From a virus (Duplodnaviria; Heunggongvirae; Uroviricota; Caudoviricetes): a stretch of 18,077 bases of DNA. The notes below the pieces were generated by a model. That model saw only the letters and a program-made list of their open reading frames with translations, made no database searches and had not been told where the DNA came from. Below are positions 1-17,102 of the stretch, one piece after another. Made by a program: the position numbers and the translations under genes. Within the stretch, counting starts at the first letter, position 1, and the number at the start of each line of letters is the position of its first letter. The DNA lies in the IMG/VR virus record IMGVR_UViG_3300045016_000151, positions 1 to 18,077 of that record; one strand, given 5' to 3'.

Positions 1-2
1 CA

Positions 3-347
3 TATCGCAGAACACATAAAATCTTCGGCACCGTAATTCATACCTGTCATCATGGCTGTCGATCCAGAAGATATTTTTGGCATGGAACTATTCGTCCATG
101 GCTCTACTACCAACATGCCTATGAGCACCATATACACAGTGCGTTTGATGATGCTTTTAAGTTTAATGTATGGAGAGCAGACCCGAAATACAATAGGGAT
201 GTAGTTATAAAGGAGTGCTATGCAATGCTGTTACGGTATATTATCCAACGTAAAAATCGTTATACAACCCCCATCCCAATTGCAGGAAATTATATTACTT
301 ATCATCATCACCCTGGCCTAACCTCAATACATTCCAGAAAAAAATGA
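3..347 (+). CDS. 5'-truncated hypothetical protein (His-rich; ...YRRTHKIFGTVIHTCHHGCRSRRYFWHG...SIHSRKK*), not in ORF track
   Basis: Frame 3 is open from the window start to TGA 345-347, which overlaps the next ATG at 344 (ATGA coupling). Confidence 0.7.
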   Translation, partial: YRRTHKIFGTVIHTCHHGCRSRRYFWHGTIRPWLYYQHAYEHHIHSAFDDAFKFNVWRADPKYNRDVVIKECYAMLLRYIIQRKNRYTTPIPIAGNYITYHHHPGLTSIHSRKK

Positions 348-652
348 AATTTATTGACGAAGAGTTGAATACATACATAGCCAAGGTATCGGGTTATAAA
401 ATCGACACTATGGTCGACGGCCTGCTTTTATATGCAAAATTAATGAAGTTTAAAGTTTGTTTTAGCGAAAATTATAAGGAACTGGCGGTTATTGCAAATG
501 CAAACGACTTTACATGGTATTATGCTGATGAAAACTTCTTGTATATGAGATATAATGAAAACACTCGTGTTCAAACAGTACCTATTTATATAGCCACAAA
601 AGCCGTATATTCGGGAATTATAAAATGCTTAGTACAACCCCCATCAAGATGA
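344..652 (+). CDS. hypothetical protein, 102 aa
   Basis: ATGA overlaps at both ends (344 and 649-652); no recognisable motif. Confidence 0.7.
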   Translation: MKFIDEELNTYIAKVSGYKIDTMVDGLLLYAKLMKFKVCFSENYKELAVIANANDFTWYYADENFLYMRYNENTRVQTVPIYIATKAVYSGIIKCLVQPPSR

Positions 653-1863
653 ACGCTGACAAACATTTGGTAATGGTTACGACTGACAATAATAATAAAT
701 ATTACGATATGCATGATAATGATGACGGTACATTTACCGCCACATGGGGGCGTATCGGTGTCACAACGTCTAATCAGACTTACCCGATAAAACAGTGGAA
801 TAGTAAGTTTAATGAAAAGGTAAAAAAGGGTTACACAGATCAATCGCATTTATTTATAAAACCAACTACTACTTCAAAACTACTTACAATTTCCGACGGA
901 AATATTAATGCGCTCGTAACTCTGTTACAGGGTTACGCAAATAAATCGATCGATGATAATTATACGGTTGATGCAAAAGTTGTCACACAAGCACAAGTAA
1001 ATGAAGCGCAAAAAATTATGAACGAACTCACGATATTTGTGAATAAATGTTCGGTTGACGCAGATGAAGTCAATGAAAAATTAATACTGTTATACGGAGT
1101 TATTCCACGTCGTATGTCTAATGTAAAAGATCATATTCTATACAAAGACACAAATCCACAAATGAAATTACGACTACAGAATTTTATAACCGCAGAGCAA
1201 GATACATTGGACGTTATGGCCGGTCAAGTGTCCGCACAGGCTGCAACTATACAAACCACTAAATCCAATTATACAATTTTGGACGCCATCGGTGTTGAAT
1301 GCAAACTCGTTGAAGACAAACAAACAGAGCAGAAAATTCTAAAGGCTATGGGTAACGACGCCAACAGACTTTTAACTGCTTATGAAATTGTGCATACTTC
1401 CTCAGCTGATAAGTATGCTAAAAATCTCGCGAGTTCCAAAAATAAAACCACAGAACTGTATTGGCATGGGTCACGTAATGAAAATTGGTGGAGTATATTG
1501 CAAACAGGATTACTGGTACGACCTACGAACGCCGTAATAACTGGCAAGATGTTTGGGTACGGTATATATGGTGCGGACAAATTCCAAAAGTCATTTGGAT
1601 ATACGTCTGGTAATAATTCTTATTGGGCACGTGGTAATCAAAACACGGCATTCTTAGGATTATTTGAATTTCATATGGGCAATACATTAACTGTACGACG
1701 TCACGAGCATTGGCAGTCTGAATTAACTCATAAGAAATTACGTGAACGCGGAGATTATGATAGTCTTACCGCTCTAGGCGGGGCTGATCTAAGAAACAAT
1801 GAGTTTATAGTATACCAGGAAGAACAACTAACTATTCGATATCTAATAAAGGTAAAAGGATGA
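649..1863 (+). CDS. PARP-family ADP-ribosyltransferase (WGR + helical regulatory + catalytic domain)
   Basis: N-terminal NNNKYY...TWGRIG...KVKKGY (WGR domain). QVNEAQKIMNEL...LYGVIPRRM resembles the PARP helical domain. Catalytic motifs YWHGSRNENWWSILQTGL, GKMFGYGIYGAD, KSFGY, NNEFIVY give the H-Y-E triad. Start moved from 625 to ATG 649 (ATGA overlap with the upstream stop). Confidence 0.93.
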   Translation: MNADKHLVMVTTDNNNKYYDMHDNDDGTFTATWGRIGVTTSNQTYPIKQWNSKFNEKVKKGYTDQSHLFIKPTTTSKLLTISDGNINALVTLLQGYANKSIDDNYTVDAKVVTQAQVNEAQKIMNELTIFVNKCSVDADEVNEKLILLYGVIPRRMSNVKDHILYKDTNPQMKLRLQNFITAEQDTLDVMAGQVSAQAATIQTTKSNYTILDAIGVECKLVEDKQTEQKILKAMGNDANRLLTAYEIVHTSSADKYAKNLASSKNKTTELYWHGSRNENWWSILQTGLLVRPTNAVITGKMFGYGIYGADKFQKSFGYTSGNNSYWARGNQNTAFLGLFEFHMGNTLTVRRHEHWQSELTHKKLRERGDYDSLTALGGADLRNNEFIVYQEEQLTIRYLIKVKG

Positions 1864-2150
1864 AAAAGCTAACACCTGCATTACAAGTATTAGTCGATCA
1901 GAAAGTCCGAGAGAATGCGGATAAAATTATCAACACTGTTATAAAGAAAAATGCTGATCGTATTTTAGCCGGCTTAAACGAATATTTACAAAGCGATGAA
2001 TTTAAACGAAAACTGTTGGCTACGGCGAAACTCGAAATTGACGACCGTATAGAAAACGAGAATTTGGATTCAATACTTACTCCAGCAAATTACAGGAAAT
2101 TTATTGTTAACTTCCAAGATACCGTCGCACGTATTCTCGGTGTAAAATGA
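1860..2150 (+). CDS. hypothetical protein, 96 aa, predicted helical
   Basis: ATGA-coupled to the PARP stop; no motif. Confidence 0.7.
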   Translation: MKKLTPALQVLVDQKVRENADKIINTVIKKNADRILAGLNEYLQSDEFKRKLLATAKLEIDDRIENENLDSILTPANYRKFIVNFQDTVARILGVK

Positions 2151-2316
2151 AATTCTTAAAACAAATCGTGGCGGTACTTATAGCCTTTATACCGACATGG
2201 TTATTCTTAATAGTAAAGGCCCTTTCAAGTCCAGAGGGATTTTGACAACAGTTGGTAATGTACTGCAATTGATTTTAATCCTTATCTGGTTTTCATTTAT
2301 AATATGGGAAAAATAA
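2147..2316 (+). pseudogene. small two-TM membrane protein apparently split by a -1 frameshift (or two overlapping micro-ORFs, 2147-2245 and 2197-2316)
   Basis: ATG 2147 gives MKFLKQIVAVLIAFIPTWLFLIVKALSSPEGF* (TGA 2243-2245). The -1 frame continues LTTVGNVLQLILILIWFSFIIWEK* to TAA 2314-2316, just before the next ATG at 2318. Confidence 0.45.
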
Positions 2317-2317
2317 T

Positions 2318-2671
2318 ATGTCAAACAAAGCTTTAGCAGCAGCACTCGCCACGTTACAACGTGCCGGGCAACTGAAACAAGTTGGAAGCGCTCTTTGTGT
2401 ACCAGTGAATGATGAAGTTATACATGATACAGCACTGGAATTGATTGAAAAACAGGGGTTTGTTACTACCCTACAAATTAAAAAGCAGTTACGATCGACC
2501 GGTTACTTTGTAAAGCAATATCAAATAAGTCAGGCGATGACCGATATGGTCGATAATGGTGAAGTATGTTTTACCAATGTCGATACACACGGAACTACGC
2601 ATCGCTTATTTTTCGATGAACAAACACCGGAACCGATAGCAGTAGCGGCTTATTACACAACAGTAAAATAA
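2318..2671 (+). CDS. hypothetical protein, 117 aa (possible winged-helix-like central part)
   Basis: Clean ORF. ALELIEKQGFVTTLQIKKQLRSTGYFVKQYQISQAM followed by beta-like segments is only suggestive of wHTH. Confidence 0.65.
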   Translation: MSNKALAAALATLQRAGQLKQVGSALCVPVNDEVIHDTALELIEKQGFVTTLQIKKQLRSTGYFVKQYQISQAMTDMVDNGEVCFTNVDTHGTTHRLFFDEQTPEPIAVAAYYTTVK

Positions 2672-2676
2672 CATGT

Positions 2677-2696
2677 GGAGAGTAGCAATACTCTCC
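2677..2696 (+). promoter_or_regulatory. perfect 8-bp RNA hairpin with GNRA (GCAA) tetraloop upstream of nadE
   Basis: GGAGAGTA-GCAA-TACTCTCC lies in the 40-nt gap, followed by SD-like AGAAAGG (2701-2707) and ATG 2712. Confidence 0.6.
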
Positions 2697-2711
2697 TTCA
2701 AGAAAGGTAAT

Positions 2712-3521
2712 ATGAAAAAACTAAACATATCTAAGGTATTATTATACCTTGTAGCACAAATACAAAAACGATTTAAAGCTGCTGGATATAGCAAAGCCAT
2801 TATTGGTTTATCTGGTGGGTTAGACAGTGCAACTGTCGCGGCATTAGCCGTTTTGGCATTAGGTCGGAAAAATGTTAGTTGTATTTATTTGCCGGCACTG
2901 GTCTCATCCGAGCGCTCTTTAAGGTTGGCAGAAGGTTTCTGTACAATTAATGAAGTATTTTTCAAGAGTAGCTCTATACAACCCATAGTCGATCGTTTTT
3001 CTGTCGAGTTGCCTATGAATTGTCTTTCGATTCCATATCAAAATTTACAGGCTCGCGTTCGCGGCGTTGTTCTTATGACTAAAGCAAATATTGATCATGG
3101 ATTAGTTATTGCAACTGGCAACAAATCCGAAAACTTAACAGGTTATTGTACATTATATGGTGACACTGTTGGCGCATTTGAGCCGCTAGGTGATTTATAT
3201 AAAACCGAAGTAATTGAATTAGCGTGTTATATTAATAAAATGACTACGGTACAAATATTGAATGAAATTATAGAACGTCCCCCTACCGCCGAATTAGCAC
3301 CAAATCAAACCGATGAAAAGGAATTGTTGCCATACGATAAGCTGGATCCGCTGCTAGATGGCTTATTAAAAGATACCTCACATAAGACGCTGGCGCGAAA
3401 ACTTCGTATTGCATTAGCGGATGTTGCGCGTATTGACCGAAGAATGAAAAACTCAGCGTTCAAGCGACGACAAACAGCACCAACTATAAAAATTCCTAAA
3501 AGGTGTTATGTCACCAGATAA
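2712..3521 (+). CDS. nadE: NH3-dependent NAD+ synthetase
   Basis: IIGLSGGLDSATVA (PP-loop SGGxDS), NLQARVRG, ATGNKSE..GYCTLYGD, PLGDLYKTEV, PPTAEL..NQTDE, AFKRR. No glutaminase domain. Start 2712 preferred over 2673 because of the SD and because 2673-2711 holds the hairpin. Confidence 0.95.
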   Translation: MKKLNISKVLLYLVAQIQKRFKAAGYSKAIIGLSGGLDSATVAALAVLALGRKNVSCIYLPALVSSERSLRLAEGFCTINEVFFKSSSIQPIVDRFSVELPMNCLSIPYQNLQARVRGVVLMTKANIDHGLVIATGNKSENLTGYCTLYGDTVGAFEPLGDLYKTEVIELACYINKMTTVQILNEIIERPPTAELAPNQTDEKELLPYDKLDPLLDGLLKDTSHKTLARKLRIALADVARIDRRMKNSAFKRRQTAPTIKIPKRCYVTR

Positions 3522-4086
3522 AGAAAAATACTTAACTACCACCTATCCCAAACTCTTTCCACCAAGACATGATCCGCGTGAAAGCTTAATGGTATTTGGT
3601 TTTGAGTGTGGAGATGGGTGGTTTTGGATTATAGATCAGTTATGTGCCATGATACAATGGAAAATTGATCAAGAATTTGAAAATTATAACCGTAAAGTAT
3701 CATATAATAAAATGATAGCCGATGCCCAAGCTGGTAATACCGACGACTTGGACAAATATTTTGAATTCATTGCGGATTTAAAACAGCGTGCCGAACGCAA
3801 AGCAGCCGCTTTAAATGCAGGATTAACGGATATTAAAGATGAAGACAAACCATATCAACCAGAAGTTATACAGGTAAAAGAGAAATATGGTACTTTACGG
3901 TTTTATATATCTGCCAGTTCATCGGAGATACATAATTATATTGCGTTTGCCGAACATTTGTCTGCAACCACATGCGAATTCTGCGGTAGTCATGAAAACA
4001 TCAAGACATCACAAGGCTGGATGATAACCGCTTGTGATAAATGTATACAAAGTCACGAGTCATTAAAAAATAGGAGTTGGAAATGA
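3508..4086 (+). CDS. conserved phage-type hypothetical protein with C-terminal Zn-binding CxxC pair
   Basis: FECGDGWFWII...QVKEKYGTLRFYI...TTCEFCG...GWMITACDKC, a motif pattern I recall from large-phage hypotheticals; function unknown. Confidence 0.75.
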   Translation: MSPDKEKYLTTTYPKLFPPRHDPRESLMVFGFECGDGWFWIIDQLCAMIQWKIDQEFENYNRKVSYNKMIADAQAGNTDDLDKYFEFIADLKQRAERKAAALNAGLTDIKDEDKPYQPEVIQVKEKYGTLRFYISASSSEIHNYIAFAEHLSATTCEFCGSHENIKTSQGWMITACDKCIQSHESLKNRSWK

Positions 4087-4451
4087 ACCCAAAATATTTA
4101 AAAATTACTTCATATATAGTAGGGAATACATTATTATTTATCGTAGAGGAACAAGGTGAATTATGGTATCATTTGAAGGGTTTTAAGTGTCCAAAGCAAA
4201 AGGTCGAATTCACGGACAAAGGATATGCTTGTATCGAACAGCATCCAAGCAAAACTGGTTGGCTCAGAGTTGGTTTGCGGGGTGATTCACGTTACAATGA
4301 CTTTAGAATAGAAGCAGTCAAGAGTGATGATCTTCTCAACATGCAAAAACGTGTCCTAGCTGCACTCGAGGTAGCAGCACAGCATATAGCAACGATAAGT
4401 GATTCAGCTCCAACTACACATTCACCTATTGTAAAAGAATTTAATGCTTAA
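4083..4451 (+). CDS. hypothetical protein, ~122 aa
   Basis: ATG 4083 overlaps the upstream TGA (ATGA); track start 4077 is an alternative. Confidence 0.7.
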   Translation: MNPKYLKITSYIVGNTLLFIVEEQGELWYHLKGFKCPKQKVEFTDKGYACIEQHPSKTGWLRVGLRGDSRYNDFRIEAVKSDDLLNMQKRVLAALEVAAQHIATISDSAPTTHSPIVKEFNA

Positions 4452-4860
4452 AGCCGTAAATCATTACTGGACTCGCGAAGAGGTAGCGAAAGATACAGAA
4501 CATTTATACCTTTTTGGAGAAAATATTGCTGACGCAAAACCAGATCCAATTAGTAAGAAGATCTTTATCCCAACAACGACTCAGGCAGTTATACGTGGAC
4601 TTAAGAACGCAATTGGGATCCCCACCAAAAAAACCCGTGGTACAAACAAAGATGCCTACTTTAACGATACTAATGCCGACTTTGAACTATTCAAGCGTGG
4701 AGTTGATGAAGCGATTGAGAAAGCCAAAAAAGACGGACGACCAATAAAGATCAGCGTATATGGACTAGGTACCGGAGCCGCCGCTGTAAGAGGTGCATTT
4801 AAAAATGGTACCGGGCGATTTTTTGATTACTTATATACACGGTTAGGAGAGCTAGACTAA
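4444..4860 (+). CDS. macrodomain-like protein (putative ADP-ribose binding/processing)
   Basis: LYLFGEN...TQAVIRGLKNAIGIPTKK...IKISVYGLGTGAA. The FGxN, QAxIR and NAxGIPTK pattern plus a C-terminal GxGTG loop resemble phage macro-like families. The CDS itself is solid; the function is inferred. Confidence 0.6.
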   Translation: MLKAVNHYWTREEVAKDTEHLYLFGENIADAKPDPISKKIFIPTTTQAVIRGLKNAIGIPTKKTRGTNKDAYFNDTNADFELFKRGVDEAIEKAKKDGRPIKISVYGLGTGAAAVRGAFKNGTGRFFDYLYTRLGELD

Positions 4861-5087
4861 TGTTCAATATATTAGAGTTGTTAATAATTGTTCCTGCGCT
4901 GTCAGCAATAATTGTACTGACGATACTTTCTTTGATTGACTGGAAATCAAACAACATCTGGTTTTGTGAAAAAATGGGTTGGCACAAGCCACCAGAACGA
5001 GTAGGATTTGACGGCTGTAGTATGGAGGGTTTTTGCCCCAGGTGTGGAAAGCACGTGTTAAGGGATTCACAAGGGAATTGGTTTTGA
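4860..5087 (+). CDS. small membrane-anchored protein with C/H Zn-ribbon-like C-terminus
   Basis: Hydrophobic N-terminus ILELLIIVPALSAIIVLTILSLI, then CEKMGWH...CPRCG; TAATG coupling. Confidence 0.7.
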   Translation: MFNILELLIIVPALSAIIVLTILSLIDWKSNNIWFCEKMGWHKPPERVGFDGCSMEGFCPRCGKHVLRDSQGNWF

Positions 5088-5100
5088 TCAGGAGATTGCC

Positions 5101-5253
5101 ATAAAAGAACATTTTACATTAACAATAGATTTATTTACCCTAGTATGGCTTACTATTGGTGTCATTTTGTGTTTAAACAATTTAATTAGCTGGTGGGTAC
5201 TATTACTCATTGGCCTTTCACACGTTCACGCAAAATTGGATTTTCATATATGA
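5101..5253 (+). CDS. 50-aa hydrophobic protein with non-canonical (ATA) or mutated start, not in ORF track
   Basis: GGAG at 5091-5094, 6 nt before ATA 5101. Frame reads IKEHFTLTIDLFTLVWLTIGVILCLNNLISWWVLLLIGLSHVHAKLDFHI*. The TGA overlaps the next ATG at 5250. Confidence 0.5.
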   Translation: MKEHFTLTIDLFTLVWLTIGVILCLNNLISWWVLLLIGLSHVHAKLDFHI

Positions 5254-5459
5254 TACACAAATTCTTTTTATACATAACAAATAACTTGCCAACGTCCTGT
5301 CATGAAGAAGTTTTCGACACGATATTTTTCATACTCAATTCGATTGCATTAGTTGTAGGTATTATTATACTAATCCTAGTAAATGAACCGCAATGGATAG
5401 CATTTCTTGTAATTGAGTATGACTGGGCATTGGATAATATAAGGCATAATAGACTGTGA
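5250..5459 (+). CDS. small membrane protein, 69 aa
   Basis: ATG 5250 in an ATGA overlap (preferred over track start 5193); hydrophobic stretch IFFILNSIALVVGIIILILV. Confidence 0.65.
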   Translation: MIHKFFLYITNNLPTSCHEEVFDTIFFILNSIALVVGIIILILVNEPQWIAFLVIEYDWALDNIRHNRL

Positions 5460-5845
5460 TGTCTTGGTTCGAAGCTGGTGCCTATAAAGATCCTCGACAA
5501 TTAAAAGGAGTCTGGATTCGTTTTAGTGCCGAATCCGATATAATGAAACGATTATATAAAACAAAACTACTCCGTTGGACCGATTATCCGTTATGGATGG
5601 CTATTGAAGAATATAACAAAGAACGCAATGAGTTGGGTGTTTATATATGGTGTAAAAATATTACTGATGTATTAAGAGGTAAATCCAGATATAATGTAAT
5701 ATTTATGTGGATTCCATATGATCCGCATTTGTCTTGTGAGGGCGATCTTGGGAAAGGATTAATAAAAAGTGAAAACAAAAAAAGAACTAAAGCAACAGGC
5801 GTGGGTCGAACGAAAGCAAAAACGAAATATCGAAAGAAAACTTAA
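5456..5845 (+). CDS. hypothetical protein with basic C-terminal tail
   Basis: GTGA/TGATG coupling to the upstream stop; no known motif. Confidence 0.65.
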   Translation: MMSWFEAGAYKDPRQLKGVWIRFSAESDIMKRLYKTKLLRWTDYPLWMAIEEYNKERNELGVYIWCKNITDVLRGKSRYNVIFMWIPYDPHLSCEGDLGKGLIKSENKKRTKATGVGRTKAKTKYRKKT

Positions 5846-5891
5846 ACGTAAGTCACGTAACCGCGCAATGCGCAGAAAGTTCGGATTGTAG
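5769..5891 (+). CDS. 40-aa highly basic micro-protein (MKTKKELKQQAWVERKQKRNIERKLKRKSRNRAMRRKFGL), not in ORF track
   Basis: GTG 5769 to TAG 5889-5891, which overlaps the GTG start of the next gene (TAGTG) and fills the 5846-5890 gap. 18 of 40 residues are K/R. Confidence 0.5.
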   Translation: MKTKKELKQQAWVERKQKRNIERKLKRKSRNRAMRRKFGL

Positions 5892-6259
5892 TGTCCACGT
5901 CAGATCGTGAGTTATTAAGAAAATGTGATCGCTTGGCACAGTTTATGAGCGTTCAGCAAGAAATAATTAAACGTCATATAGATGAACATAAATGGTATAG
6001 ACATATATCAGATACCACCGAAGCCGTCGCTGCTTTTAGCGATGAATACGGCTGGTTAATTCGCGAAGTGTGGTGCCGTTATACATGTCCAATTCGTAAT
6101 CAATGCACACTTTCAAAAAGTGGAGCCAAAATGAGAGCGATTACTACACGATTATTCAGAATATGGTGTTGGGCATGGTACGCACATGATCGGGATGTAC
6201 CCGGCCGATCCGTTGAAATATGTGGTCGATGCGGAGCACATATTGTAGGAGATGCCTAA
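5891..6259 (+). CDS. hypothetical Cys-containing protein, possibly two fused ORFs
   Basis: QQEIIKRHIDEHKWY...WCRYTCPIRNQC, then an in-frame internal SD (GGAG 6122-6125) and ATG 6131 before a WC..AH...CGRCG unit. Confidence 0.65.
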   Translation: MSTSDRELLRKCDRLAQFMSVQQEIIKRHIDEHKWYRHISDTTEAVAAFSDEYGWLIREVWCRYTCPIRNQCTLSKSGAKMRAITTRLFRIWCWAWYAHDRDVPGRSVEICGRCGAHIVGDA

Positions 6260-7022: not shown

Positions 7023-8114
7023 ATGAGTACATTTATAGTACCGATTGTAACTATTAAAACTGTTATTAAACATCCAAACGCCGATTCATTAGATATACTA
7101 TCGTTTGAAGAAGTATCTTGGCAATGCGTAGATAAAATTAATACACGCAAACCTGGCGACATGGTAGTATATATTCCAATTGATAGTGTAGTGGACGTCC
7201 GTCGGCCAGAATTTGAGTTCTTAAAATCAAAGGCTAAGGCTGACTATTCTTGTCGTATACGTACAATCAGATTGCGTGGCGAGATTAGCCAGGGGTTGGT
7301 TATTTCTATGCCCAGCGATATGATAAAATGGCTGTGCGATAAAATTACTGGTCATAAAGACTGCGCACAAGGTATATCGTTTGATATACCAGGGCAGGAT
7401 GTATCGGAGTATTATGGTATAAAAAAATATGAGCCACCACCAGAAAGTATACCTCCTTTATCGGCAGGTAATTATCCAAGTTGGTGTGAAAAAAGCGATG
7501 CTGAACGATATCAAAACTATAATCGCACTATTGAGCCGTTTCGAGACCATGCATTTTATAAAACTATAAAAATGGATGGTGCCAGTATAACGGTATTTTA
7601 TGATGCGGAAACAGAACATAGCGGAGTCTGCAGCCGAAACTGGGAAATTAAAGAAAATAGTGATATCACAAGACTTGACAACTATTGGCTTATCGCGAAG
7701 AAATATAATTTACTCCAAATCGTAAAAGATATTGCTATGGATAAGGGTATAAAGCGCCTTGCGTTGCAGGGAGAGATGTGTGGTCCAGGCGTTCAAGGAA
7801 ATAAGATGGGACTTTCAGAACTACAATTTTTTGCCTTTGATATGTATAATGGTGATATTGGTGAATTTATCGAATATCCTTTCTTCATTGCATTATGTCA
7901 TTATTGGAAAATACCGACCGTCGAGATTTTAGAGGTTGGTACACTTGGGAAAGAACTCGATACTAATTTTGCGTATGTGTCACAATTGAAATATGATAAT
8001 GATTTACCTGCCGAAGGTGTAGTATATGTAGCAGTTAATTCACAGCGTGTAGGTACGCTTGGTAGACTAAAATTTAAATTTATCAACCCAGAATTTTTAT
8101 TAAAATATGATTGA
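7023..8114 (+). CDS. ATP-dependent RNA ligase, DRB0094/Rnl5-like (N-terminal OB-like domain + nucleotidyltransferase domain)
   Basis: IKHPNADSLD, GDMVVYIPIDS, RIRTIRLRGEISQGL (N-domain). Motif I IKMDGAS (KxDG), LQGEMCGPGVQGN, FFAFD, EGVV, FKFINPEFLLK. Confidence 0.9.
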   Translation: MSTFIVPIVTIKTVIKHPNADSLDILSFEEVSWQCVDKINTRKPGDMVVYIPIDSVVDVRRPEFEFLKSKAKADYSCRIRTIRLRGEISQGLVISMPSDMIKWLCDKITGHKDCAQGISFDIPGQDVSEYYGIKKYEPPPESIPPLSAGNYPSWCEKSDAERYQNYNRTIEPFRDHAFYKTIKMDGASITVFYDAETEHSGVCSRNWEIKENSDITRLDNYWLIAKKYNLLQIVKDIAMDKGIKRLALQGEMCGPGVQGNKMGLSELQFFAFDMYNGDIGEFIEYPFFIALCHYWKIPTVEILEVGTLGKELDTNFAYVSQLKYDNDLPAEGVVYVAVNSQRVGTLGRLKFKFINPEFLLKYD

Positions 8115-8721
8115 ACAAAAATGGGGGCAAACCCCCACCGCTTCGGAGGAAAAACCGAAGAATATCGAAATAGTTAAAGATCCTGCATTTGTTGAAGTAG
8201 TTGCAGTAAATAGATTTTATTTTTACTCCGAAATTGGTAGGGCGGAGGTTTTACAATTAAACCGACGTTTATTCGAAGCTAGCAACCAGTTATTAATCGA
8301 TGCGGCTGCACAAGAGCGCCCACCCGCAGAAATTTATCTGCACATTAACAGTTACGGCGGAAGTATCTTTGCAGGGCTTGCGGCAATGGACGCGATATTG
8401 CATTCAAAAATTCCCGTAGTAACCATTATCGACGGCTGTTGTGCGTCAGCGGCTACGTTTTTAAGCGTGGCCGGCAAACGTAGAATTATACGACCTAATG
8501 CTTATATGCTTATACATCAGTTATGGTCAGTAAGTTGGGGAAAATTTCGTGAGCTCGAAGATGATCATAAGAATAATAATAAACTTATGGACAAAATTCG
8601 TGAGATTTATGCAAAGTATACAAAGATTCCCGCAGAAAAAATAAACGAAATATTAGATCATGATCTGTGGTTTGACGCAAAGACATGCCTAGATTATGGA
8701 TTAGTGGACGAAATAATATGA
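8107..8721 (+). CDS. clpP: ClpP-family serine protease
   Basis: LHINSYGGSIFAGLAAMDAI, CASAATFL (Ser), MLIHQ (His), HDLWFDA...GLVDEI (Asp). Confidence 0.9.
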   Translation: MIEQKWGQTPTASEEKPKNIEIVKDPAFVEVVAVNRFYFYSEIGRAEVLQLNRRLFEASNQLLIDAAAQERPPAEIYLHINSYGGSIFAGLAAMDAILHSKIPVVTIIDGCCASAATFLSVAGKRRIIRPNAYMLIHQLWSVSWGKFRELEDDHKNNNKLMDKIREIYAKYTKIPAEKINEILDHDLWFDAKTCLDYGLVDEII

Positions 8722-9752: not shown

Positions 9753-10051
9753 ACGAGAAATTTATAATTCGGGGGATTACAAGTGTAATAGCATTATTTT
9801 TTGTGCTCATCACTTATTATTTGGTAGGACTTATGAGTACAATCGTAAGCATCGTTATGCCGCTAGTGTATATATTATTAGTAGATAAACTCTGCACGAG
9901 GGACTATTTAGGAGATGAACTAGTATTATATATTGTTCTTATATTTATTGTTGCAGCTATGTGCGGTTTTATATGTATAGGCACGTTTATCGCCTGGACG
10001 CTGTTAGAGTCCTTTTTTGTACATATTTGGTTAAGATCAGGTGATAAATGA
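9749..10051 (+). CDS. multi-pass membrane protein, 100 aa
   Basis: ATG 9749 in an ATGA overlap (preferred over 9695); three to four hydrophobic segments. Confidence 0.75.
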   Translation: MNEKFIIRGITSVIALFFVLITYYLVGLMSTIVSIVMPLVYILLVDKLCTRDYLGDELVLYIVLIFIVAAMCGFICIGTFIAWTLLESFFVHIWLRSGDK

Positions 10052-10386
10052 TTTATGCGGATGGTAGTGGTTGGAATGGCGAACGTTCAGCATGGGGGCT
10101 TGTTCTAAATGATGGACGTAAAGCAATTTTTGAAACCGACAAAAAACGCACAAACAACGAAACCGAATATCTAGCGGTAATTGCTGCCTGTGACTATGTT
10201 ATACGCGGAGAAGAAATATTGACAGATAGTCGTCTTGTATATGGCCAAATAAATGAAAAGTGGAAAATCAATCACGCTCATCTACATGAACTATATACCG
10301 TTTTAAAAAAACGATTGTCCGAAACAGGTGCGAGTGTCCGCTGGATTCCAAGAAAACAAAATAAAGCAGGAAAATTATTTGAATGA
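10048..10386 (+). CDS. ribonuclease HI family protein
   Basis: IYADGS, TNNETEYLAVIAA, ILTDSRLVYGQI..KWKI, WIPRKQNKAG. The D-E-D carboxylates are present; the C-terminal Asp of N-x-x-AD is replaced by G. Confidence 0.88.
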   Translation: MIYADGSGWNGERSAWGLVLNDGRKAIFETDKKRTNNETEYLAVIAACDYVIRGEEILTDSRLVYGQINEKWKINHAHLHELYTVLKKRLSETGASVRWIPRKQNKAGKLFE

Positions 10387-10606: not shown

Positions 10607-11488
10607 ATGAAAACTTCCTATTCCGAAATTGTCAGCACCAAGAAGCAGCACGATTTACTTATTGCTGCAAATCAGGAAATGCTGACTCCGGCGCACACAG
10701 ATGCGCACAACACGTTATTAATCTTAATTGATTTTCAGCAAGATTTTATGCCCAATGGGGCGCTGGGAGTACCAGGCGCAGATCAGGATGTTATGCGTGT
10801 CACAAAATGGATCTACGATAATATTGCAAAGCTTACTACGATTGCAGTTTCTATCGATACCCATAATCCTTTCCAGATATTTCACCCATGTTGGTGGGAA
10901 AACGAAAAAAGCGAAAATCCTCCTCCGTTCACTGCCATCTCTTTAGCCGATCTCGATTCTGGGAAATGGCGTCCAGTAATCTTACCAAACCATTCCCGCG
11001 AATATGTTGAAGCACTTAGTAAGTCCAACAAAAAAGTGCTTGTTATTTGGCCTTATCACTGTTTGCAGGGAACGCAAGGTTGTGCATTAGATCCCCAGAT
11101 AAGTAATATGGTATATTTTCATAGCGTGGCCAGGAAATCTATGGCTATCCGCATTGTAAAAGGCACCGATCCTGGTACTGAGATGTATGGTATTATCAAA
11201 CCAGAATGGGATCCGAAGAATTTTGTTAATATTCAGTTCCTGAATAAACTGGAACAATACCAGCAAATTGTCATTGCGGGTGAAGCAAAGTCGCATTGTG
11301 TATTAGAATCCATATTACAGATGCTTGAGCATTACAAACAAAGGCCAGAAATTACAAAACGAGTGTTTATTCTCGAAGATGCAATGAGTATTATTCCGGG
11401 GTTTGAAGGCATTACCGATGCAGCATTTAAAGATTTTAAATCCAAATATCAAGTAAATTTAACTACAACTAAGGATTTCGCACTATGA
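10607..11488 (+). CDS. pncA: nicotinamidase-like cysteine hydrolase (isochorismatase family, long form)
   Basis: LILIDFQQDF (catalytic Asp), SIDTH and IWPYHCLQGTQG (metal ligands), VKG (Lys), GEAKSHCV (Cys nucleophile). Substrate is inferred. Confidence 0.82.
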   Translation: MKTSYSEIVSTKKQHDLLIAANQEMLTPAHTDAHNTLLILIDFQQDFMPNGALGVPGADQDVMRVTKWIYDNIAKLTTIAVSIDTHNPFQIFHPCWWENEKSENPPPFTAISLADLDSGKWRPVILPNHSREYVEALSKSNKKVLVIWPYHCLQGTQGCALDPQISNMVYFHSVARKSMAIRIVKGTDPGTEMYGIIKPEWDPKNFVNIQFLNKLEQYQQIVIAGEAKSHCVLESILQMLEHYKQRPEITKRVFILEDAMSIIPGFEGITDAAFKDFKSKYQVNLTTTKDFAL

Positions 11489-12150
11489 ACGAAGAAAAAA
11501 CGGTACTTGGTTTAGATGAATTAGAGATCGAAAATACTTCTATCGAGGAAATCGATAGTGAGGAAGTACACCTAGTATGTGTAGCCGTCGATGCTTCTGG
11601 ATCTATGTCGCCATATGTCGAGGATATGAAGAAGTGTTTAGCGGACTTTAAAGGTGCGTTGACAGCATCAAAAGAAGAGAATAAAATCTTACTTGCCAGA
11701 GCAACTTTTAGTGATATTACTGATATTAGTGGCTATAAACCAATCAAGGATTTTGATGGGTCATATTCAGCCGCCGGTGGTACTACGTTGTATGATGTAA
11801 TAGTTGAAAGTGCCACAAAACTCACAGAGTACATGGATCATCTGAAGAGCCAGGGCATGCGTTGTCGCGCTGTTATTGCTGTCTTCTCTGATGGTGAAGA
11901 TACCTGTTCTCGTAAAAGCGCCGCTAAAGCACGTCAAGCCATTGAAGCTTTAAATAACAAAGAGATCACCACGGCTTTTGTATCGTTTGGCGGTGAAGCC
12001 GATACTGTAGCGAAAGATCTCGGATTTAAGAATCTTTTAACCGTGCAAAGTTCTGCACATGATTTACGAATCGCATTTAATTGTTTATCGAAATCTGTGA
12101 TCGAAAATTCAAAAGCAGTAACTCCTTCACAGGATGCGTTTTTCGTGTAA
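11485..12150 (+). CDS. von Willebrand factor A domain protein (TerY/YegL-like)
   Basis: Complete MIDAS: VAVDASGSM (DxSxS), GGTTLYD (T), VFSDGED (D). Confidence 0.9.
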   Translation: MNEEKTVLGLDELEIENTSIEEIDSEEVHLVCVAVDASGSMSPYVEDMKKCLADFKGALTASKEENKILLARATFSDITDISGYKPIKDFDGSYSAAGGTTLYDVIVESATKLTEYMDHLKSQGMRCRAVIAVFSDGEDTCSRKSAAKARQAIEALNNKEITTAFVSFGGEADTVAKDLGFKNLLTVQSSAHDLRIAFNCLSKSVIENSKAVTPSQDAFFV

Positions 12151-12158
12151 GATATTTA

Positions 12159-12191
12159 GGGTCGGGGAGTTAATCTCTCCGACCCCATTTT
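12159..12191 (+). terminator. GC-rich hairpin, putative intrinsic terminator
   Basis: GGGTCGGGGAG-TTAAT-CTCTCCGACCC (11 bp with one G-U pair) followed by CATTTT. Confidence 0.65.
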
Positions 12192-12446
12192 ATGGAAACA
12201 CGTAGATACTCGATTTGTTGTAATGCATCACCTGTACAGGAATTATGTGTATATAATCTGATATATCACGGTTTATGCAGTCGCTGTAGAGAAAACTCAA
12301 TTTTTTATACATTAGCACAATTGGAGCGTTTAGATGGTAATCAACAAAATAGGAAAATATCATTTAGATTCGGGATTGAACAAGCAGGATATTGGTTACG
12401 AGGACTCGAAGATAAAATTTGTGGCGGACGGCTGCGGAGAAAGTAA
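12192..12446 (+). CDS. small Cys-rich (Zn-binding-like) protein overlapping the phosphatase gene
   Basis: YSICCNA...GLCSRCREN motif in the N-terminal half; the last 113 nt overlap the next gene. Confidence 0.6.
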   Translation: METRRYSICCNASPVQELCVYNLIYHGLCSRCRENSIFYTLAQLERLDGNQQNRKISFRFGIEQAGYWLRGLEDKICGGRLRRK

Positions 12447-13041
12447 GTTTTCCGAGTTTGGGGTAATTATGGCTTATTGGTACTTTAAGAAATGCGCTGC
12501 GCTACGAGAACTCGAATGCGGCGCTTATATGGATACTCCACACTTAAGCCATATGTTCAATCACATTGCCTCAAGATTTGACTTAACCACAAAACCAACG
12601 GCCCTCGATCAAATAAATTTAGACTTTATCAGAGAATGTTTATTATTTACTACGCTATTACTCTTTGAAACTCAAGATACCTTCGAAGCTGAAACTATAG
12701 GAGATGGGTTTTTGATTCTTATAGATCACAATGATAAAATTACATTTGAAGAACTGGCACCAACGGAAAAATACGTCCCATTTTTTGCGTATGATTTTAT
12801 CCCTGAAACACGATTAAGCACACACAAAGATCCCATAGAAATAAAAAAGTATTCGTTTTCTAAGTCACAATATAAATGTGTTGGACTGGCTTCAGATGGA
12901 CTTCGGTTTTATTTTAAACTTCCACCGCTATTGCAAGAAGAATTTCTTAAGTTATTAATAAAAGGAAAGGAAGTACCGGTTAAGCTTTTCATAAATCGTA
13001 ATTATTCATATTTTCAGGATGATATCACAATAGTACTATGA
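12334..13041 (+). CDS. PP2C-like protein Ser/Thr phosphatase (YegK/TerY-P type)
   Basis: GKYHLDSGLNKQD, VADGCG, IGDGF, LASDGL, QDDITIV; the metal-binding Asp motifs are present. Confidence 0.85.
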   Translation: MVINKIGKYHLDSGLNKQDIGYEDSKIKFVADGCGESKFSEFGVIMAYWYFKKCAALRELECGAYMDTPHLSHMFNHIASRFDLTTKPTALDQINLDFIRECLLFTTLLLFETQDTFEAETIGDGFLILIDHNDKITFEELAPTEKYVPFFAYDFIPETRLSTHKDPIEIKKYSFSKSQYKCVGLASDGLRFYFKLPPLLQEEFLKLLIKGKEVPVKLFINRNYSYFQDDITIVL

Positions 13042-14741
13042 AAATAGATAAACGTACACTAGGTCTACCAATTGCCGAAGGCGGTGAAGGGCAAATCTAT
13101 ATTGGCAAGACTACCGGAGATGTACTTAAGGTCTTTAAACCCGGGGCTGATCTGGATGCCAAAAGAAATAAACTCGAAATATTATTACATACAAAATTAC
13201 CCACTACAGTTGTAGCTCCCAAGGATTTACTATACAATTACGCAGGTGATTTTATTGGGTATGTGATGCCTAATTTGCATGAGATTGAGGAATTTAGAGC
13301 ACTGACAAGTCGAAAAACACTTGCAGCATATAATATACATATAATAGATATTCTTCATATGCTCGTATCGGTTCGTGATACAATTTTAGAACTACATCCA
13401 CAAAATATTTTTATTGGGGATCTAAATGATGCCAATGTGGTATTTACTGGGGGGCTGGACGCGCGTATTCTTGACGTTGATAGCTGGAGCATTGGTTCTT
13501 ACCCATGTGTAGTGGCAATGGATTCATTTAAGGATCCTAAATTGAAAGGAACTAATTTTAATGCGAACACTGATGCGTATTCTTTTGCGATTTTGGCTTT
13601 TAAGAGTCTTACCAGATTACATCCGTTTGGTGGTACGGTTAGCCCTAATATGGATCTTCTTGAGCGAATGTCTAAGGGCCGTTCCGTACTAAATCCAAAA
13701 GTAAAAGCAATTATACCACGAATCATAGATCCCTGGGAATATATGTATCCAGGATTTCTCGAGGACTTGTCTCGAATATACGATCAAGGTGTTCGAATAA
13801 TGCTTGTAAAATCATTGGATGAGTTCGCAGAAAACCTAACGCGTTGTCAAGCACATGGCAATGATTACTATGCAAAGTATGATAAATGTCCGGTATGTTT
13901 TAAGGCCACATTAAAGCCGATACAACCACAAAAAGTTCCGACAACAGCTGGTATTATTATGACTAAAATATTTGCAAGTAGAGATCGTGTAGAACTTTTA
14001 AATGATAACTCGTATATAGATTCAAATGGATATGTATGTCATATAAAAACAGCGGCGCAGGCACTTATACACTTTGGCGAAAAGACTTATTTTTATGATG
14101 ACGGTACCAAGTTAACAACTAATACCGACAACATTTTTTTGGGATCGGCTACAATACCAAAATTACATAACAGTAACGTAATAATAAAGCCGGCGGATAA
14201 ACAATTCTTCTATGTTTCTCCTAACCTGACACTACATAAGTGCAATATTGTTGGTGCGGCAGGAGTCTCGCCACAGGTATTAGCGCATGTTGCTATAAAT
14301 CACGTTTATTCAGTGGCTTCTGATTCATATTGTGTTATTAATTTTTATGATCATAAAACTATTATTGAAACCGATAAAAATTTTATCGAGTTAGCCGATA
14401 TTATTCGACCGACAAGCTACGGACTGCATTATGATGATATTACTAAAAGATGGTTATTTATATATGAATCTACGACGGGTAAGTTCGTCACATATGTCAT
14501 TGAGAAAACAAACGTCTTATTTAAGAATGATGCATTAAGATATAATGTACCTTTAGATTCTTTAGCATTTCATTCAAATACTATTTATACTGCGCACACT
14601 GATTTAGTGCGCGGATATAATTGGAAGAAAAATGAATATAAAGATTTTAACTGCATAGGTACTGAGGAAGGTGCAATGCTAATGTTCAAGGGTAAGAAAA
14701 TCATTATTATTAATCAAAAAGAAATATATGAGGCAGGTTAA
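13038..14741 (+). CDS. Ser/Thr protein kinase (YegI/TerY-P type) with Zn knuckle and long C-terminal domain
   Basis: IAEGGEGQIY (Gly loop), VLKVFK (Lys), IGDLNDANV (catalytic loop), ILDVDSW, DAYSFAILAF..LTRLHPFGG; then CQAH...CPVC and a beta-rich tail of about 270 aa. Confidence 0.9.
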   Translation: MKIDKRTLGLPIAEGGEGQIYIGKTTGDVLKVFKPGADLDAKRNKLEILLHTKLPTTVVAPKDLLYNYAGDFIGYVMPNLHEIEEFRALTSRKTLAAYNIHIIDILHMLVSVRDTILELHPQNIFIGDLNDANVVFTGGLDARILDVDSWSIGSYPCVVAMDSFKDPKLKGTNFNANTDAYSFAILAFKSLTRLHPFGGTVSPNMDLLERMSKGRSVLNPKVKAIIPRIIDPWEYMYPGFLEDLSRIYDQGVRIMLVKSLDEFAENLTRCQAHGNDYYAKYDKCPVCFKATLKPIQPQKVPTTAGIIMTKIFASRDRVELLNDNSYIDSNGYVCHIKTAAQALIHFGEKTYFYDDGTKLTTNTDNIFLGSATIPKLHNSNVIIKPADKQFFYVSPNLTLHKCNIVGAAGVSPQVLAHVAINHVYSVASDSYCVINFYDHKTIIETDKNFIELADIIRPTSYGLHYDDITKRWLFIYESTTGKFVTYVIEKTNVLFKNDALRYNVPLDSLAFHSNTIYTAHTDLVRGYNWKKNEYKDFNCIGTEEGAMLMFKGKKIIIINQKEIYEAG

Positions 14742-14995: not shown

Positions 14996-15253
14996 ATGAA
15001 CTGGAAATGCTGTAAAAAGACAATTGTCGATGCCCTCTATAACTATGACTTAATTGATATTCGATATAAGATTATCGGTTGCCTAGGTAGTATGTTAATA
15101 GGAAGTATTATTTATATTTTCGATCATAGTTTGGAAGGCCTTTTGTATTGGTGTTTTGGTGCAATTATGCCATGGCCTATTATTCATGTGTTAGTACGTA
15201 CGAAAGAATGGTATGAAAGCTACGTTACTTATCGAGAACAAAGACTTCATTAA
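14996..15253 (+). CDS. small membrane protein, 85 aa
   Basis: Two hydrophobic segments (IIGCLGSMLIGSIIYIF; LLYWCFGAIMPWPIIHVLV). Confidence 0.7.
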   Translation: MNWKCCKKTIVDALYNYDLIDIRYKIIGCLGSMLIGSIIYIFDHSLEGLLYWCFGAIMPWPIIHVLVRTKEWYESYVTYREQRLH

Positions 15254-16286
15254 AAAATACTCTAATGAGTACGGGGAAAGATTAGTATTAATAACACCAC
15301 AGTATCAGGGGTGTGCTTGGGACAAGATGAACCTGATATTTCGAAGTTCTATCTGGACCGAAGACGGTTATTTAGTTAGCCCCAGCTTTCCAAAGTTTTT
15401 TAATTGGAATGAAAAAGATAATTTAGTACCGCCTCCGCAGAGTTTAATCAATACTACGGCTGTAGAGAAGATCGACGGTAGTGCATTAATAGTAACTCCT
15501 TACAAAGGACAACTTATCATACGTACACGAGGTACATTTAATGCCGATATTTTTGAGAATTTTGATGAAATCAAGTTTTTCAAAAAAGAGTTTCCCAAGG
15601 CATTTGATTTTTCTGATGAAACATGCACCCGTATATTTGAATGGTATAGTCCAAAAAATAAAATTGTATTGGATTTAGGAAAAACTCCGCGATTGTTCTT
15701 AGTAGGTATAATAAGGCACGAAGACTATAGTTTATACACTCAAGCTTCATTGGACCTCATAGCTCGTCAGCTTGGCGTTGAAAGGCCTGCATCTTTTACT
15801 TTTGAATCTGTAGAGCATTTATTAGAGGAGGTACAAAGATTCGATGGTAAGGAGGGGGTCTGTTTATACTATGATTTGGATCAACACATAAAAAAGATCA
15901 AAGGCGATAAATATTTGGCTGTGCACGCATTTAAAAGCGATCTCAGTATAAATAATTTATTGGAAGCCTATACACTTTATGGTAGACCCAAGTACCAAGA
16001 TTTTTATAATTATATTGCCAATACATATGATTTTGAATGCGCTGAAATAGCTAAAGGAGACATTTCAAGATTATGTGATGCCAATAAGGAAGTTGAAAAA
16101 ATAGTCGAGCATATGAAAGTATTTGCGAATGATTGTAAATTACTGTCTCGAAAAGAAGCCGCGTTAAAGATTACACAAGCCTACGGCAAAACCAGCCGTG
16201 CGGGATTTGTGTTTACATTATTAGACGGCCGGCAGCTCGACGCGGAAGCATACAAAAAACTCTTACATCAGGTGATACCAAAATGA
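15213..16286 (+). CDS. T4 Rnl1-like ATP-dependent RNA ligase
   Basis: FRSSIW...SFPKFFNWNE, motif I EKIDGS, RTRGT, IFEWYSPKNKIV, EGVC, KIKGDKY. Confidence 0.88.
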   Translation: MKATLLIENKDFIKKYSNEYGERLVLITPQYQGCAWDKMNLIFRSSIWTEDGYLVSPSFPKFFNWNEKDNLVPPPQSLINTTAVEKIDGSALIVTPYKGQLIIRTRGTFNADIFENFDEIKFFKKEFPKAFDFSDETCTRIFEWYSPKNKIVLDLGKTPRLFLVGIIRHEDYSLYTQASLDLIARQLGVERPASFTFESVEHLLEEVQRFDGKEGVCLYYDLDQHIKKIKGDKYLAVHAFKSDLSINNLLEAYTLYGRPKYQDFYNYIANTYDFECAEIAKGDISRLCDANKEVEKIVEHMKVFANDCKLLSRKEAALKITQAYGKTSRAGFVFTLLDGRQLDAEAYKKLLHQVIPK

Positions 16287-16690
16287 ATATAAAATTAGGA
16301 TCAAAGATCGTTCCTCGCAAAAATAGTAATAGTCATAACTATGAACTCGGCAAAACATATGAAGTGTATACACATCCAATATCTATGGGTGCGGTCTGTA
16401 CATTTTCAGCAAAAGACCCAGTAACCGGTACAATTGGAAATACTTTACTCAGTACGGACTGCGAACTAGCGATAGTTACTAGAGATGAACTAAAAGAGGA
16501 ACTTGAGCGGTTAGAGAGGGAAATCGACCTTGTTCAGGCGAAACTTGACTGGATGGATGAATTTAATGCAGATACACTTAATCCAGAAGAATTTCGTGTT
16601 TTTCATATATTACAAGAAGCCAATTATACTGGAAAAACGTTACTTGAGCGATCTCGAGCTATAGTGAAGATTCTGAACGAAAATGCCTAA
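16283..16690 (+). CDS. hypothetical protein with coiled-coil segment
   Basis: ATGA-coupled; heptad-like RDELKEELERLEREIDLVQAKL. Confidence 0.7.
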   Translation: MNIKLGSKIVPRKNSNSHNYELGKTYEVYTHPISMGAVCTFSAKDPVTGTIGNTLLSTDCELAIVTRDELKEELERLEREIDLVQAKLDWMDEFNADTLNPEEFRVFHILQEANYTGKTLLERSRAIVKILNENA

Positions 16691-17102
16691 GAAAATATCT
16701 GCCGGTGCCATTATCACTGATGGCACCGTGTTTCTTGTATGCCACGCAACAGGACAGAAAATTTGGGATATTCCCAAAGGTGGTGTTGATCCTAATGAGA
16801 ATTTTCTTGAAGCGTGCATTCGTGAGGTCAAAGAAGAAACTAACTATGATGTACCAGAGACAGCTGTAATCGAGGAACTTGGACAGTTTACATATTTACC
16901 GGCCAAAGATCTCTATTTATTCAAGATCACTGTTGAGCCGTTACCTAATATCGATTATATGAAATGTACGTCGATGGTAAATCTTCCAGACAAACCTCCA
17001 TTTCCCGAGGTTAACGCATTTAAGTATATTTATCCAAGGGTTGCTGATGAATATATATCACAAAATCTAAAACGCACATTAGTAATGGCAGGAGTACTAT
17101 GA
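16683..17102 (+). CDS. Nudix hydrolase
   Basis: Nudix box G-GVDPN-E-NFLEACI-REVKEET preceded by WDIPK; substrate unknown. Confidence 0.92.
   Translation: MPKKISAGAIITDGTVFLVCHATGQKIWDIPKGGVDPNENFLEACIREVKEETNYDVPETAVIEELGQFTYLPAKDLYLFKITVEPLPNIDYMKCTSMVNLPDKPPFPEVNAFKYIYPRVADEYISQNLKRTLVMAGVL

Follow-up and report, generated by a model that had tools for sequence, protein, structure and literature searches.

A three-domain PARP and its winged-helix neighbour in a lake-water jumbo phage

Human PARP2 and PARP3 and the core of PARP1 are built from three domains, a WGR domain, a helical domain (HD) and an ADP-ribosyltransferase (ART) domain with the catalytic triad H-Y-E. The same three domains, in the same order, make up a protein of 404 amino acids encoded at 649-1863 (+ strand) of the window, by which we mean the whole stretch of 18,077 nucleotides analysed here; it is the opening 18 kb of an IMG/VR virus record that spans 215,016 bp and is 100% complete by CheckV estimate. 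We refer to the gene and its product as PARP. The likeness to the human enzymes extends to the motifs GxMFG, KSxxY and NEY/F and to the fold (Z 26-28), and by analogy the mechanism is presumed to be the same, with the WGR domain sensing a break and the HD being released. The phage protein differs in being only 20-24% identical to the human PARPs, in having no N-terminal tail, zinc fingers or BRCT domain, in a shorter interval between the Tyr and Glu motifs, and in a Gly for Phe after the catalytic Tyr. Furthermore, it adjoins a gene for a winged-helix protein, a partner that eukaryotic PARPs do not have. In our preferred reading, to which we assign a probability of roughly 0.6, the protein would be a break-gated PARP of an old phage/Bacteroidota family, co-inherited with the winged-helix protein and acting in the phage response to nuclease damage.

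Among bacterial enzymes, HaPARP from Herpetosiphon aurantiacus and CdPARP from Clostridioides difficile CD160 produce poly(ADP-ribose) (PAR) in vitro, HaPARP in a DNA-dependent manner, and these two are the only bacterial PARPs of which in vitro activity has been shown (PMC8120803). Both belong to other clades than the phage PARP and are encoded beside PARG genes. The Clade 1.1 PARPs of Cytophagales consist of a WGR and an ART domain with a helical domain in between that is missed by Pfam but seen in structural models (Garcia-Saura et al. 2018, PMC5966428). The phage PARP has the same architecture, including the Pfam-silent helical domain, and is about 47% identical to proteins from Flexithrix, Microscillaceae, Saprospiraceae and Spirosomataceae.

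In phages, the PARP of Cellulophaga phage phi4:1 was listed by Perina et al. 2014 (PMC4245714), and PARPs of a few jumbo phages were described by Iyer et al. 2021 (PMC7824862), who suggested modification of host proteins. The annotated phage PARPs (Cellulophaga phages phi4:1 and phi17:2, Xanthomonas phage XacN1, and Klebsiella and Stenotrophomonas phages) are full-length relatives of the window protein at 23-39% identity, and in phi17:2 a winged-helix gene directly follows the PARP gene, as it does here. They are nevertheless distant: the closest relatives are uncultured, with 69% identity on metagenomic contigs and 39% for the closest phage-collection record, itself that of an uncultured phage. 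A group of 'NAD-jumbo phages' carries NAD+ synthesis genes, with a cluster of pncB, nadD and nadE, together with NAD+-using enzymes including a PARP1-like one (Li et al. 2024, PMC11662467). Similar to these, the jumbo phage studied here has its own NAD+ synthesis genes and a PARP. Unlike the NAD-jumbo phages, which are from the gut, it stems from lake water, its pathway genes are dispersed, and NadE is tied to the PARP/winged-helix cassette. Phage T4 also encodes ADP-ribosyltransferases, Alt, ModA and ModB, but their motif is R-S-E, whereas the phage PARP has the H-Y-E of the diphtheria-toxin/PARP clade. To our knowledge no phage PARP and only two bacterial ones have been studied biochemically, and we know of no assigned cellular role for any of them. 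The PARP of this phage is a further member of a kind already known in silico; what the analysis adds is a winged-helix partner that is conserved, a full set of genes for NAD+ recycling, and phage and bacterial clades that separate cleanly.

Architecture, fold and family of the phage PARP

The domains and triad codons of the PARP gene are as follows.

649..882, + strand: WGR domain, amino acids 1-78, with the motif T-W-G-R-I-G at 32-37 and a pI of 8.9 (Pfam WGR and fold alignment)
883..1368, + strand: helical domain, amino acids 79-240, structurally equivalent to the HD (PARP_reg) of PARP1
1369..1860, + strand: ART catalytic domain, amino acids 241-404, with the H-Y-E triad and the motifs GKMFG, GIYGA, KSFGY and NNEF
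1465-1467, 1567-1569 and 1801-1803, + strand: codons of the triad residues H273, Y307 and E385

The open reading frame (ORF) translates without stops. Its start was placed at the ATG at 649, which forms an ATGA overlap with the stop of the preceding ORF; a further in-frame ATG is present at 625, and alignments with homologues begin at about residue 4-7 of the version that starts at 649. Pfam recognised the PARP catalytic domain (2.2e-22, amino acids 237-403) and the WGR domain (PF05406, 2.4e-6, amino acids 11-66, 28 bits against a cut-off of 22), and PARP_reg (PF02877) was not reported for the 404-residue protein. Among PDB sequences, phmmer retrieved PARP2 and PARP1 at about 1e-13, the PARP1 alignment spanning amino acids 112-320 and thus HD and ART, and among PHROGs the protein was assigned to phrog_23333 at 7e-53.

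An AlphaFold2 (AF2) model made with 120 homologues reached a pLDDT of 92.9 and a pTM of 0.87. With VIA-align, model residues 1..404 superimposed on residues 546..1007 of PARP1 (4dqy_C) with a Z score of 28.5 and an rmsd of 3.3 A over 361 residues, and residues 79..404 on the PARP1 catalytic fragment 662..1007 with a Z score of 27.5; catalytic fragments of the PARP1/2/3 group as a whole were matched at Z 27. The top Foldseek matches were WGR-HD-ART chains of DNA-bound PARP1 and PARP2 (E 1e-22), and the predicted domain arrangement is similar to that of DNA-bound PARP1 in 4dqy. In the HD the model places helices at 84-104, 114-131, 138-151, 169-202 and 224-240. In view of the AF2 model and these structural alignments all three domains are real, despite the silent PARP_reg model of Pfam. 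The features of DNA-dependent PARPs of the PARP1/2/3 type are present, namely an H-Y-E ART domain (PF00644), an HD directly N-terminal of it and a WGR domain before the HD. The PARP2/PARP3 layout proposed in the earlier note is thus upheld by sequence and by fold, the WGR, helical and ART folds all being recovered by structure prediction.

Residue conservation was evaluated in a 120-sequence alignment with 119 database proteins that are 45-69% identical over at least 95% of the length. The triad residues H273, Y307 and E385 are invariant in the 120 homologues. K314 and Y318 are likewise found in all 120 and M301 in 119; these include the Met of GxMFG and the Lys of KSxxY, which the earlier note had singled out along with the triad. 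Of the W33-G34-R35 motif of the WGR domain, G34 and R35 are invariant across the family, and the NNNKYY block aligns with PARP2. From sequence and model we predict that the gene product is a minimal PARP of the PARP1/2/3 type with a working catalytic site.

The family is large. Relatives of the phage PARP form 3,410 clusters at 90% identity (E<=0.001), and an exhaustive search of 50%-identity representatives gave 3,060 matches, 490 of them at E<=1e-30, the weaker of which will include eukaryotic PARPs. With two peptide patterns at least 242 relatives were found on IMG/VR contigs and at least 133 among species-representative genomes; the 80 genome loci that were retained are nearly all from Bacteroidota (Saprospiraceae, Cytophagales, Spirosomataceae). 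Among 50,697 curated phage records 16 carry a PARP relative, several of which are already annotated as poly(ADP-ribose) polymerase. A nucleotide search of window positions 1-6000 against the same records gave no match, hence no close cultured relative is known. With these numbers, and with PARP present in 27 of 201 genomes of a single bacterial order (see below), prokaryotic and phage PARPs can no longer be called sporadic, as the earlier note had done. Its description of the protein as eukaryote-like holds as a resemblance but not as kinship, the nearest relatives being from phages (69% identity) and Bacteroidota (about 47%). Identity drops from 69% for the nearest viral relative to 47-48% for the nearest bacterial one, which does not support a recent capture from a host.

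For a maximum-likelihood tree, the 80 loci most similar to the query were taken from each of the viral and bacterial sets; after removal of short, ambiguous and duplicate sequences it comprised 154 PARPs (74 viral, 80 bacterial), with no outgroup. The viral/bacterial label changes only 2 times on this tree, as compared to about 51 times in shuffles. Almost all bacterial sequences (79 of the 80) form one clade with SH-aLRT support of 97, while the viral sequences fall into several clades that branch more deeply. The window PARP groups with L009, L006 and L002 (support 100) outside the bacterial clade. The phylogeny that had been suggested as a check separates viral from bacterial PARPs, the two groups that it covers; the direction of transfer cannot be read from a tree without outgroup. 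The sole exception among the 'bacterial' sequences is L158, on a 73-kb contig binned as Candidatus Nanoarchaeia. As its PARP lies inside a viral clade, the contig probably comes from a phage and was assigned by mistake to an archaeal metagenome-assembled genome.

The winged-helix gene downstream of PARP

The protein encoded 455 nt past the PARP stop, with one small ORF in between, and its bacterial fusion forms are listed here.

2318..2671, + strand: PARP-associated winged-helix protein of 117 amino acids (homology, HMM and AF2 fold)
L107:9242-10186, L094:3526-4473, L128:9301-10254 and L118:9115-10152, right after PARP: proteins of 314-345 amino acids in which the winged helix is followed by a WGR domain and by some 150 C-terminal amino acids without family match

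The 117-residue protein has no Pfam or PHROG match, and its profile gave no hit among PDB sequences at E<=1. Homologues are nevertheless encoded by the gene just downstream of PARP in Cellulophaga phage phi17:2, in related phages and on a chromosome from Flammeovirgaceae. The consensus of the core is G.TTTL.VK..LR..GY...Q..VS...W....NG..R.Y, in which L52, K55 and R59 of the second helix are invariant and Q67 and S71, at the start of the third helix, nearly so; G92 and R96 lie in the wing. The AF2 model (pLDDT 91.3) is a winged helix, for which fold searches returned only generic matches of the PadR/MarR/TFE type and the BlaI type. We found no mention of this protein in the papers that we consulted, which is not proof that it is undescribed.

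Linkage to PARP was surveyed by iterative HMM searches over the ORFs of 166 PARP loci, 81 bacterial and 85 viral. The partner was detected in 60 of the bacterial loci; in 54 it follows PARP on the same strand at a distance of up to 1 kb, and in 47 of up to 300 nt. Of the viral loci 16 contain it, 10 of them on the same strand within 1 kb downstream. Co-occurrence was examined in a sample of 201 genomes of the Bacteroidota order that contains Fibrisoma limi: both genes are present in 27 genomes, PARP alone in none, the partner alone in 3 and neither in 171 (Fisher p 1.8e-30), and the two adjoin each other in 21 of the 27 genomes that have both. The 7.6-Mb genome of F. limi has only two partner copies, which come directly after the PARP gene, and the 215-kb phage genome has a single one. 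In at least four bacteria (L107, L094, L128 and L118) the partner is fused to a second WGR domain; an Atlas search with the long fusion of L107 gave no usable match. At two further loci, G032:C1:6056474-6057545 and G196:C42:20707-21526, PARP is truncated or split, matching the profile only in part, and an intact winged-helix gene directly follows.

Mapping on the PARP tree places the partner in most of the bacterial clade and in the majority of viral clades, among them that of the Cellulophaga phage, which diverges most. Because it is present in most PARP clades, the linkage looks ancestral, with repeated loss in phages. Judged from sequence and linkage, the winged-helix protein is most likely a co-sensor or a preferred acceptor of ADP-ribose. 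Prediction of a complex between PARP and the winged-helix protein gave a score of 0.00; it was run without controls and carries no weight either way.

A more far-reaching version, which we offer only tentatively, would see in PARP and the winged-helix protein the two components of an ancestral system for ADP-ribosylation in phages and Bacteroidota. The partner would then be an obligate co-sensor or dedicated acceptor, comparable to HPF1 or a linker histone, in phages the system would mark the ends of broken RNA or DNA for the repair enzymes encoded alongside, and the deep phage clades would be a candidate source of the eukaryotic WGR-HD-ART core. Alternatively, the winged-helix protein may be a mere transcriptional regulator of the operon or of other genes, with PARP acting alone like PARP3. 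Repressors of the PadR, MarR and BlaI types are indeed its fold matches, small winged helix-turn-helix genes beside enzyme genes often regulate them, and some phages have PARP without the partner. The gene is, however, situated downstream of PARP on the same strand, often overlapping it, rather than upstream or divergent, and the WGR fusions in at least four bacteria tie the protein to break sensing, not to promoter control. In addition, it is nearly confined to PARP genomes (27 with both against 3 with the partner alone among the 201), and the family is not basic. Its position and the WGR fusions in particular make a repressor role rather unlikely.

NAD+ supply and the surrounding genes

All sizeable ORFs of the window are on the + strand. 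Besides PARP and the winged-helix gene they comprise the following.

344-652, + strand: upstream ORF without relatives in other PARP loci and without family match
1860..2150, + strand: ORF of 96 amino acids, its start overlapping the PARP stop (ATGA); lineage-specific, as none of the other 165 PARP loci holds a relative, and without a match to any family
2673..3521, + strand: NAD synthase NadE without glutaminase domain (Pfam NAD_synthase 1.3e-60, PHROG NAD synthetase), for the final step back to NAD+; syntenic in L002 and L007
3508-4086, + strand: ORF of 192 amino acids without family match
4444..4860, + strand: DUF7831 protein (Pfam 3e-15), with 58-70% identical copies in L002 and L006
7023-8114, + strand: RNA ligase
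8107-8721, + strand: ClpP-like protease
10048-10386, + strand: RNase H
10607-14741, + strand: weakly matched nicotinamidase-like gene, followed by vWA, PP2C and an ORF of 567 amino acids
10607..11488, + strand: the nicotinamidase-like gene itself, isochorismatase/nicotinamidase (PncA)-like and a candidate for the first recycling step (Pfam Isochorismatase 1.2e-4, below the curated cut-off)
15213-16286, + strand: Rnl1-type ligase
16683-17102, + strand: Nudix protein
17291-18007, + strand: RlaP-type nucleotidyltransferase

Two further genes of NAD+ synthesis are located elsewhere in the phage genome (G000).

G000 ~122,641-124,038 (L004:1048-2445): PncB-type nicotinate phosphoribosyltransferase (NAPRTase_N 8e-43)
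G000 ~134,355-134,921 (L005:1489-2055): enzyme of the NadD/NMNAT family (CTP_transf_like 1e-17)

The nadE gene begins 2 nt after the winged-helix gene. No terminator-like sites were found on the + strand in 1-5200, and sigma-70 promoter-like sites show no excess (21, as compared to 18.6 +/- 4.1 in shuffled sequence). The pathway genes are dispersed, at approximately 3, 11, 123 and 134 kb of the genome, but since a PncA-like protein (weak), PncB, a NadD-like enzyme and NadE are all present, the full deamidated route from nicotinamide to NAD+ is encoded. A gene for the head domain of a CCA-adding enzyme or poly(A) polymerase (L005:779-1492, G000 ~133,645-134,358) abuts the NadD-like gene. The only ADP-ribose-processing family detected in the genome is a NADAR-domain protein at G000 117,882-118,292 (L169, Pfam 2.2e-25), about 116 kb from PARP.

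In related phage contigs PARP, the winged-helix gene, NadE, DUF7831, ClpP and RNA ligase are syntenic. The 192-residue ORF has relatives of 121-141 amino acids in 15 other viral loci, positioned 3.6-7.5 kb upstream of PARP on the same strand. The Atlas clusters of DUF7831 are mostly viral, with giant viruses included. A role of the DUF7831 protein (4444-4860) as a macrodomain-like eraser was considered and found unsupported: Pfam gives DUF7831 only, the Pfam Macro model matched nothing in the genome, phmmer against PDB gave chance matches, and the Atlas DUF7831 clusters have no structure. In one related phage a metallo-beta-lactamase-fold gene of the Anti-Pycsar Apyc1 type lies about 4.4 kb upstream of PARP (L007:2748-3569).

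The genome also carries phage head-protease and RNA-repair genes. The phage recurs in lake-water metagenomes from 2018 to 2025, and the matching sequencing runs are all DNA. The RNA-repair context was analysed by single-sequence searches within 8 kb of PARP in the 85 viral and 81 bacterial loci. RlaP is found in 21 of the viral loci, which represent several PARP clades; in most cases it follows PARP on the same strand at a distance of 0.1-6 kb. A PHA02142-type RNA ligase occurs in 13 of them, Rnl1 in 10 and a PNKP-like gene in 6, whereas none of RlaP, the RNA ligases and the PNKP-like gene was found within this distance in the bacterial loci. In Cellulophaga phage phi17:2 the cassette is flanked by a CCA-adding enzyme, directly upstream of PARP and similar to the one beside the NadD-like gene, and a DNA ligase.

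Proposed role and competing explanations

Beyond architecture, fold, residue conservation and gene linkage, we infer the following scheme for break activation, polymer formation, targets and biological role. In the resting state the helical domain would cover the NAD+ site. Binding of the N-terminal WGR domain to a broken nucleic-acid end or a nick would loosen the helical domain, after which the H-Y-E site could transfer ADP-ribose. Formation of ADP-ribose chains appears likely, because the protein retains the acceptor-site Met, Lys and Tyr with which PARP1 holds the acceptor ADP-ribose. The nicotinamide released may be recycled by the PncA-like, PncB, NadD-like and NadE proteins of the phage. 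The cassette as a whole would be part of a phage response to nuclease damage during infection; this is suggested by NadE directly following the cassette, with no + strand terminator in 1-5200, and by the island of RNA-repair and NAD-salvage genes. By analogy with the eukaryotic enzymes, a transferase that is NAD+-dependent and activated by nucleic-acid breaks, as the earlier note had supposed, would be the most economical reading.

Several observations weigh against this scheme. Five whole PARP-bearing phage genomes, four of them at least 95% complete, have no homologue of the winged-helix protein although the same profile finds the window copy, so the partner is not needed by every phage PARP. 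With a median pI of 6.9 (5.8 for the window copy) the family of the partner is close to neutral in charge, as a general DNA binder seldom is; this and the loss of the partner from many phages call for caution about its role. No macrodomain, bacterial-type PARG or ARH (PF01661, PF10021, PF03747) was found in the 215-kb genome by searches that detected them in control genomes. The search for eukaryotic-type PARG (PF05028) gave no match in the phage genome nor in any control genome and is hence uninformative. No PARG was found in the phage genome, another difference from the eukaryotic systems, and with no eraser found a reversible PAR cycle is not evident. PARP3, with the same triad, makes mono-ADP-ribose only, and for this reason PAR and mono-ADP-ribose as products cannot be told apart from sequence. 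The clustering with RNA-repair genes may reflect merely a shared region of accessory genes, and the association is suggestive only. Finally, the Gly at 308, in place of the usual Phe beside the catalytic Tyr, may affect NAD+ binding.

A first alternative to the nuclease-damage response is that PARP is a host-takeover transferase comparable to T4 Alt, ModA and ModB, which would ADP-ribosylate host RNA polymerase or translation factors early in infection and use its WGR domain for localisation only. This is the reading proposed for jumbo-phage PARPs (PMC7824862), and it would fit a gene in an accessory region of small, probably early genes as well as the many phages that keep PARP without a winged-helix partner. 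A constitutive modifier, however, would have no need of the WGR-HD regulatory apparatus, which is conserved in phage and bacterial members; bacterial chromosomes, which have no host to subvert, contain the same cassette; and the T4 enzymes have R-S-E in place of the H-Y-E triad seen here. On balance we regard host takeover as unlikely.

A second possibility is that PARP serves as a weapon that burns NAD+ at the expense of host metabolism or competing phages, with phage NAD+ synthesis covering the needs of the phage itself. The NAD+ consumer does adjoin an NAD synthase, a full recycling route is encoded in the genome, and NAD+ is a known battleground between phage and host (PMC7824862). Dedicated NADases (TIR, SIR2) would be simpler for this purpose, specific transfer is rather what an autoinhibited enzyme suggests that is gated by breaks and keeps its acceptor-site residues, and the chromosomal copies of bacteria would be self-harmful. 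NAD+ drainage as the main function is therefore improbable.

The remaining two explanations concern the protein itself. The codons ggt ata tat ggt gcg at 1561-1575 confirm that the usual GIYFA reads G-I-Y-G-A here, as had been noted earlier. Residue 308 is F in 93 of the 120 homologues, and an inactive relic, in which the Phe-to-Gly change abolished NAD+ binding and left a pseudo-enzyme, is conceivable on that basis. Yet G is present in 18 of the 120, namely the ten closest sequences, which are 57-69% identical and keep every other catalytic residue, and 8 others, and A, L and Y occur at this position too. Being common to the ten closest sequences, G308 is a tolerated lineage trait and not an error, which makes a relic highly improbable. 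A vault-type PARP, the counterpart of vPARP/PARP4, is just as hard to credit: fold searches do match the catalytic domain of PARP4 (Z 27.0), but PARP1-3 score at least as high, and the protein consists of WGR, HD and ART only, with a WGR domain and none of the BRCT, VIT, vWA and MVP-binding regions of PARP4.

The break-gated PARP with its winged-helix partner thus remains the reading that we prefer. It would place a minimal regulated PARP, with WGR, HD and ART in 404 amino acids, in a phage and beside a supply of NAD+. Together with the winged-helix protein it would constitute a simple two-protein system, which offers a new handle on the function of prokaryotic PARPs, and culturable carriers of the same cassette are at hand in Cellulophaga phages phi4:1 and phi17:2 and in species of Fibrisoma, Spirosoma and Larkinella. 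The size of the family, and the deep phage clades that stand apart from a single bacterial clade, bear on the question whether prokaryotic PARPs are recent loans from eukaryotes.

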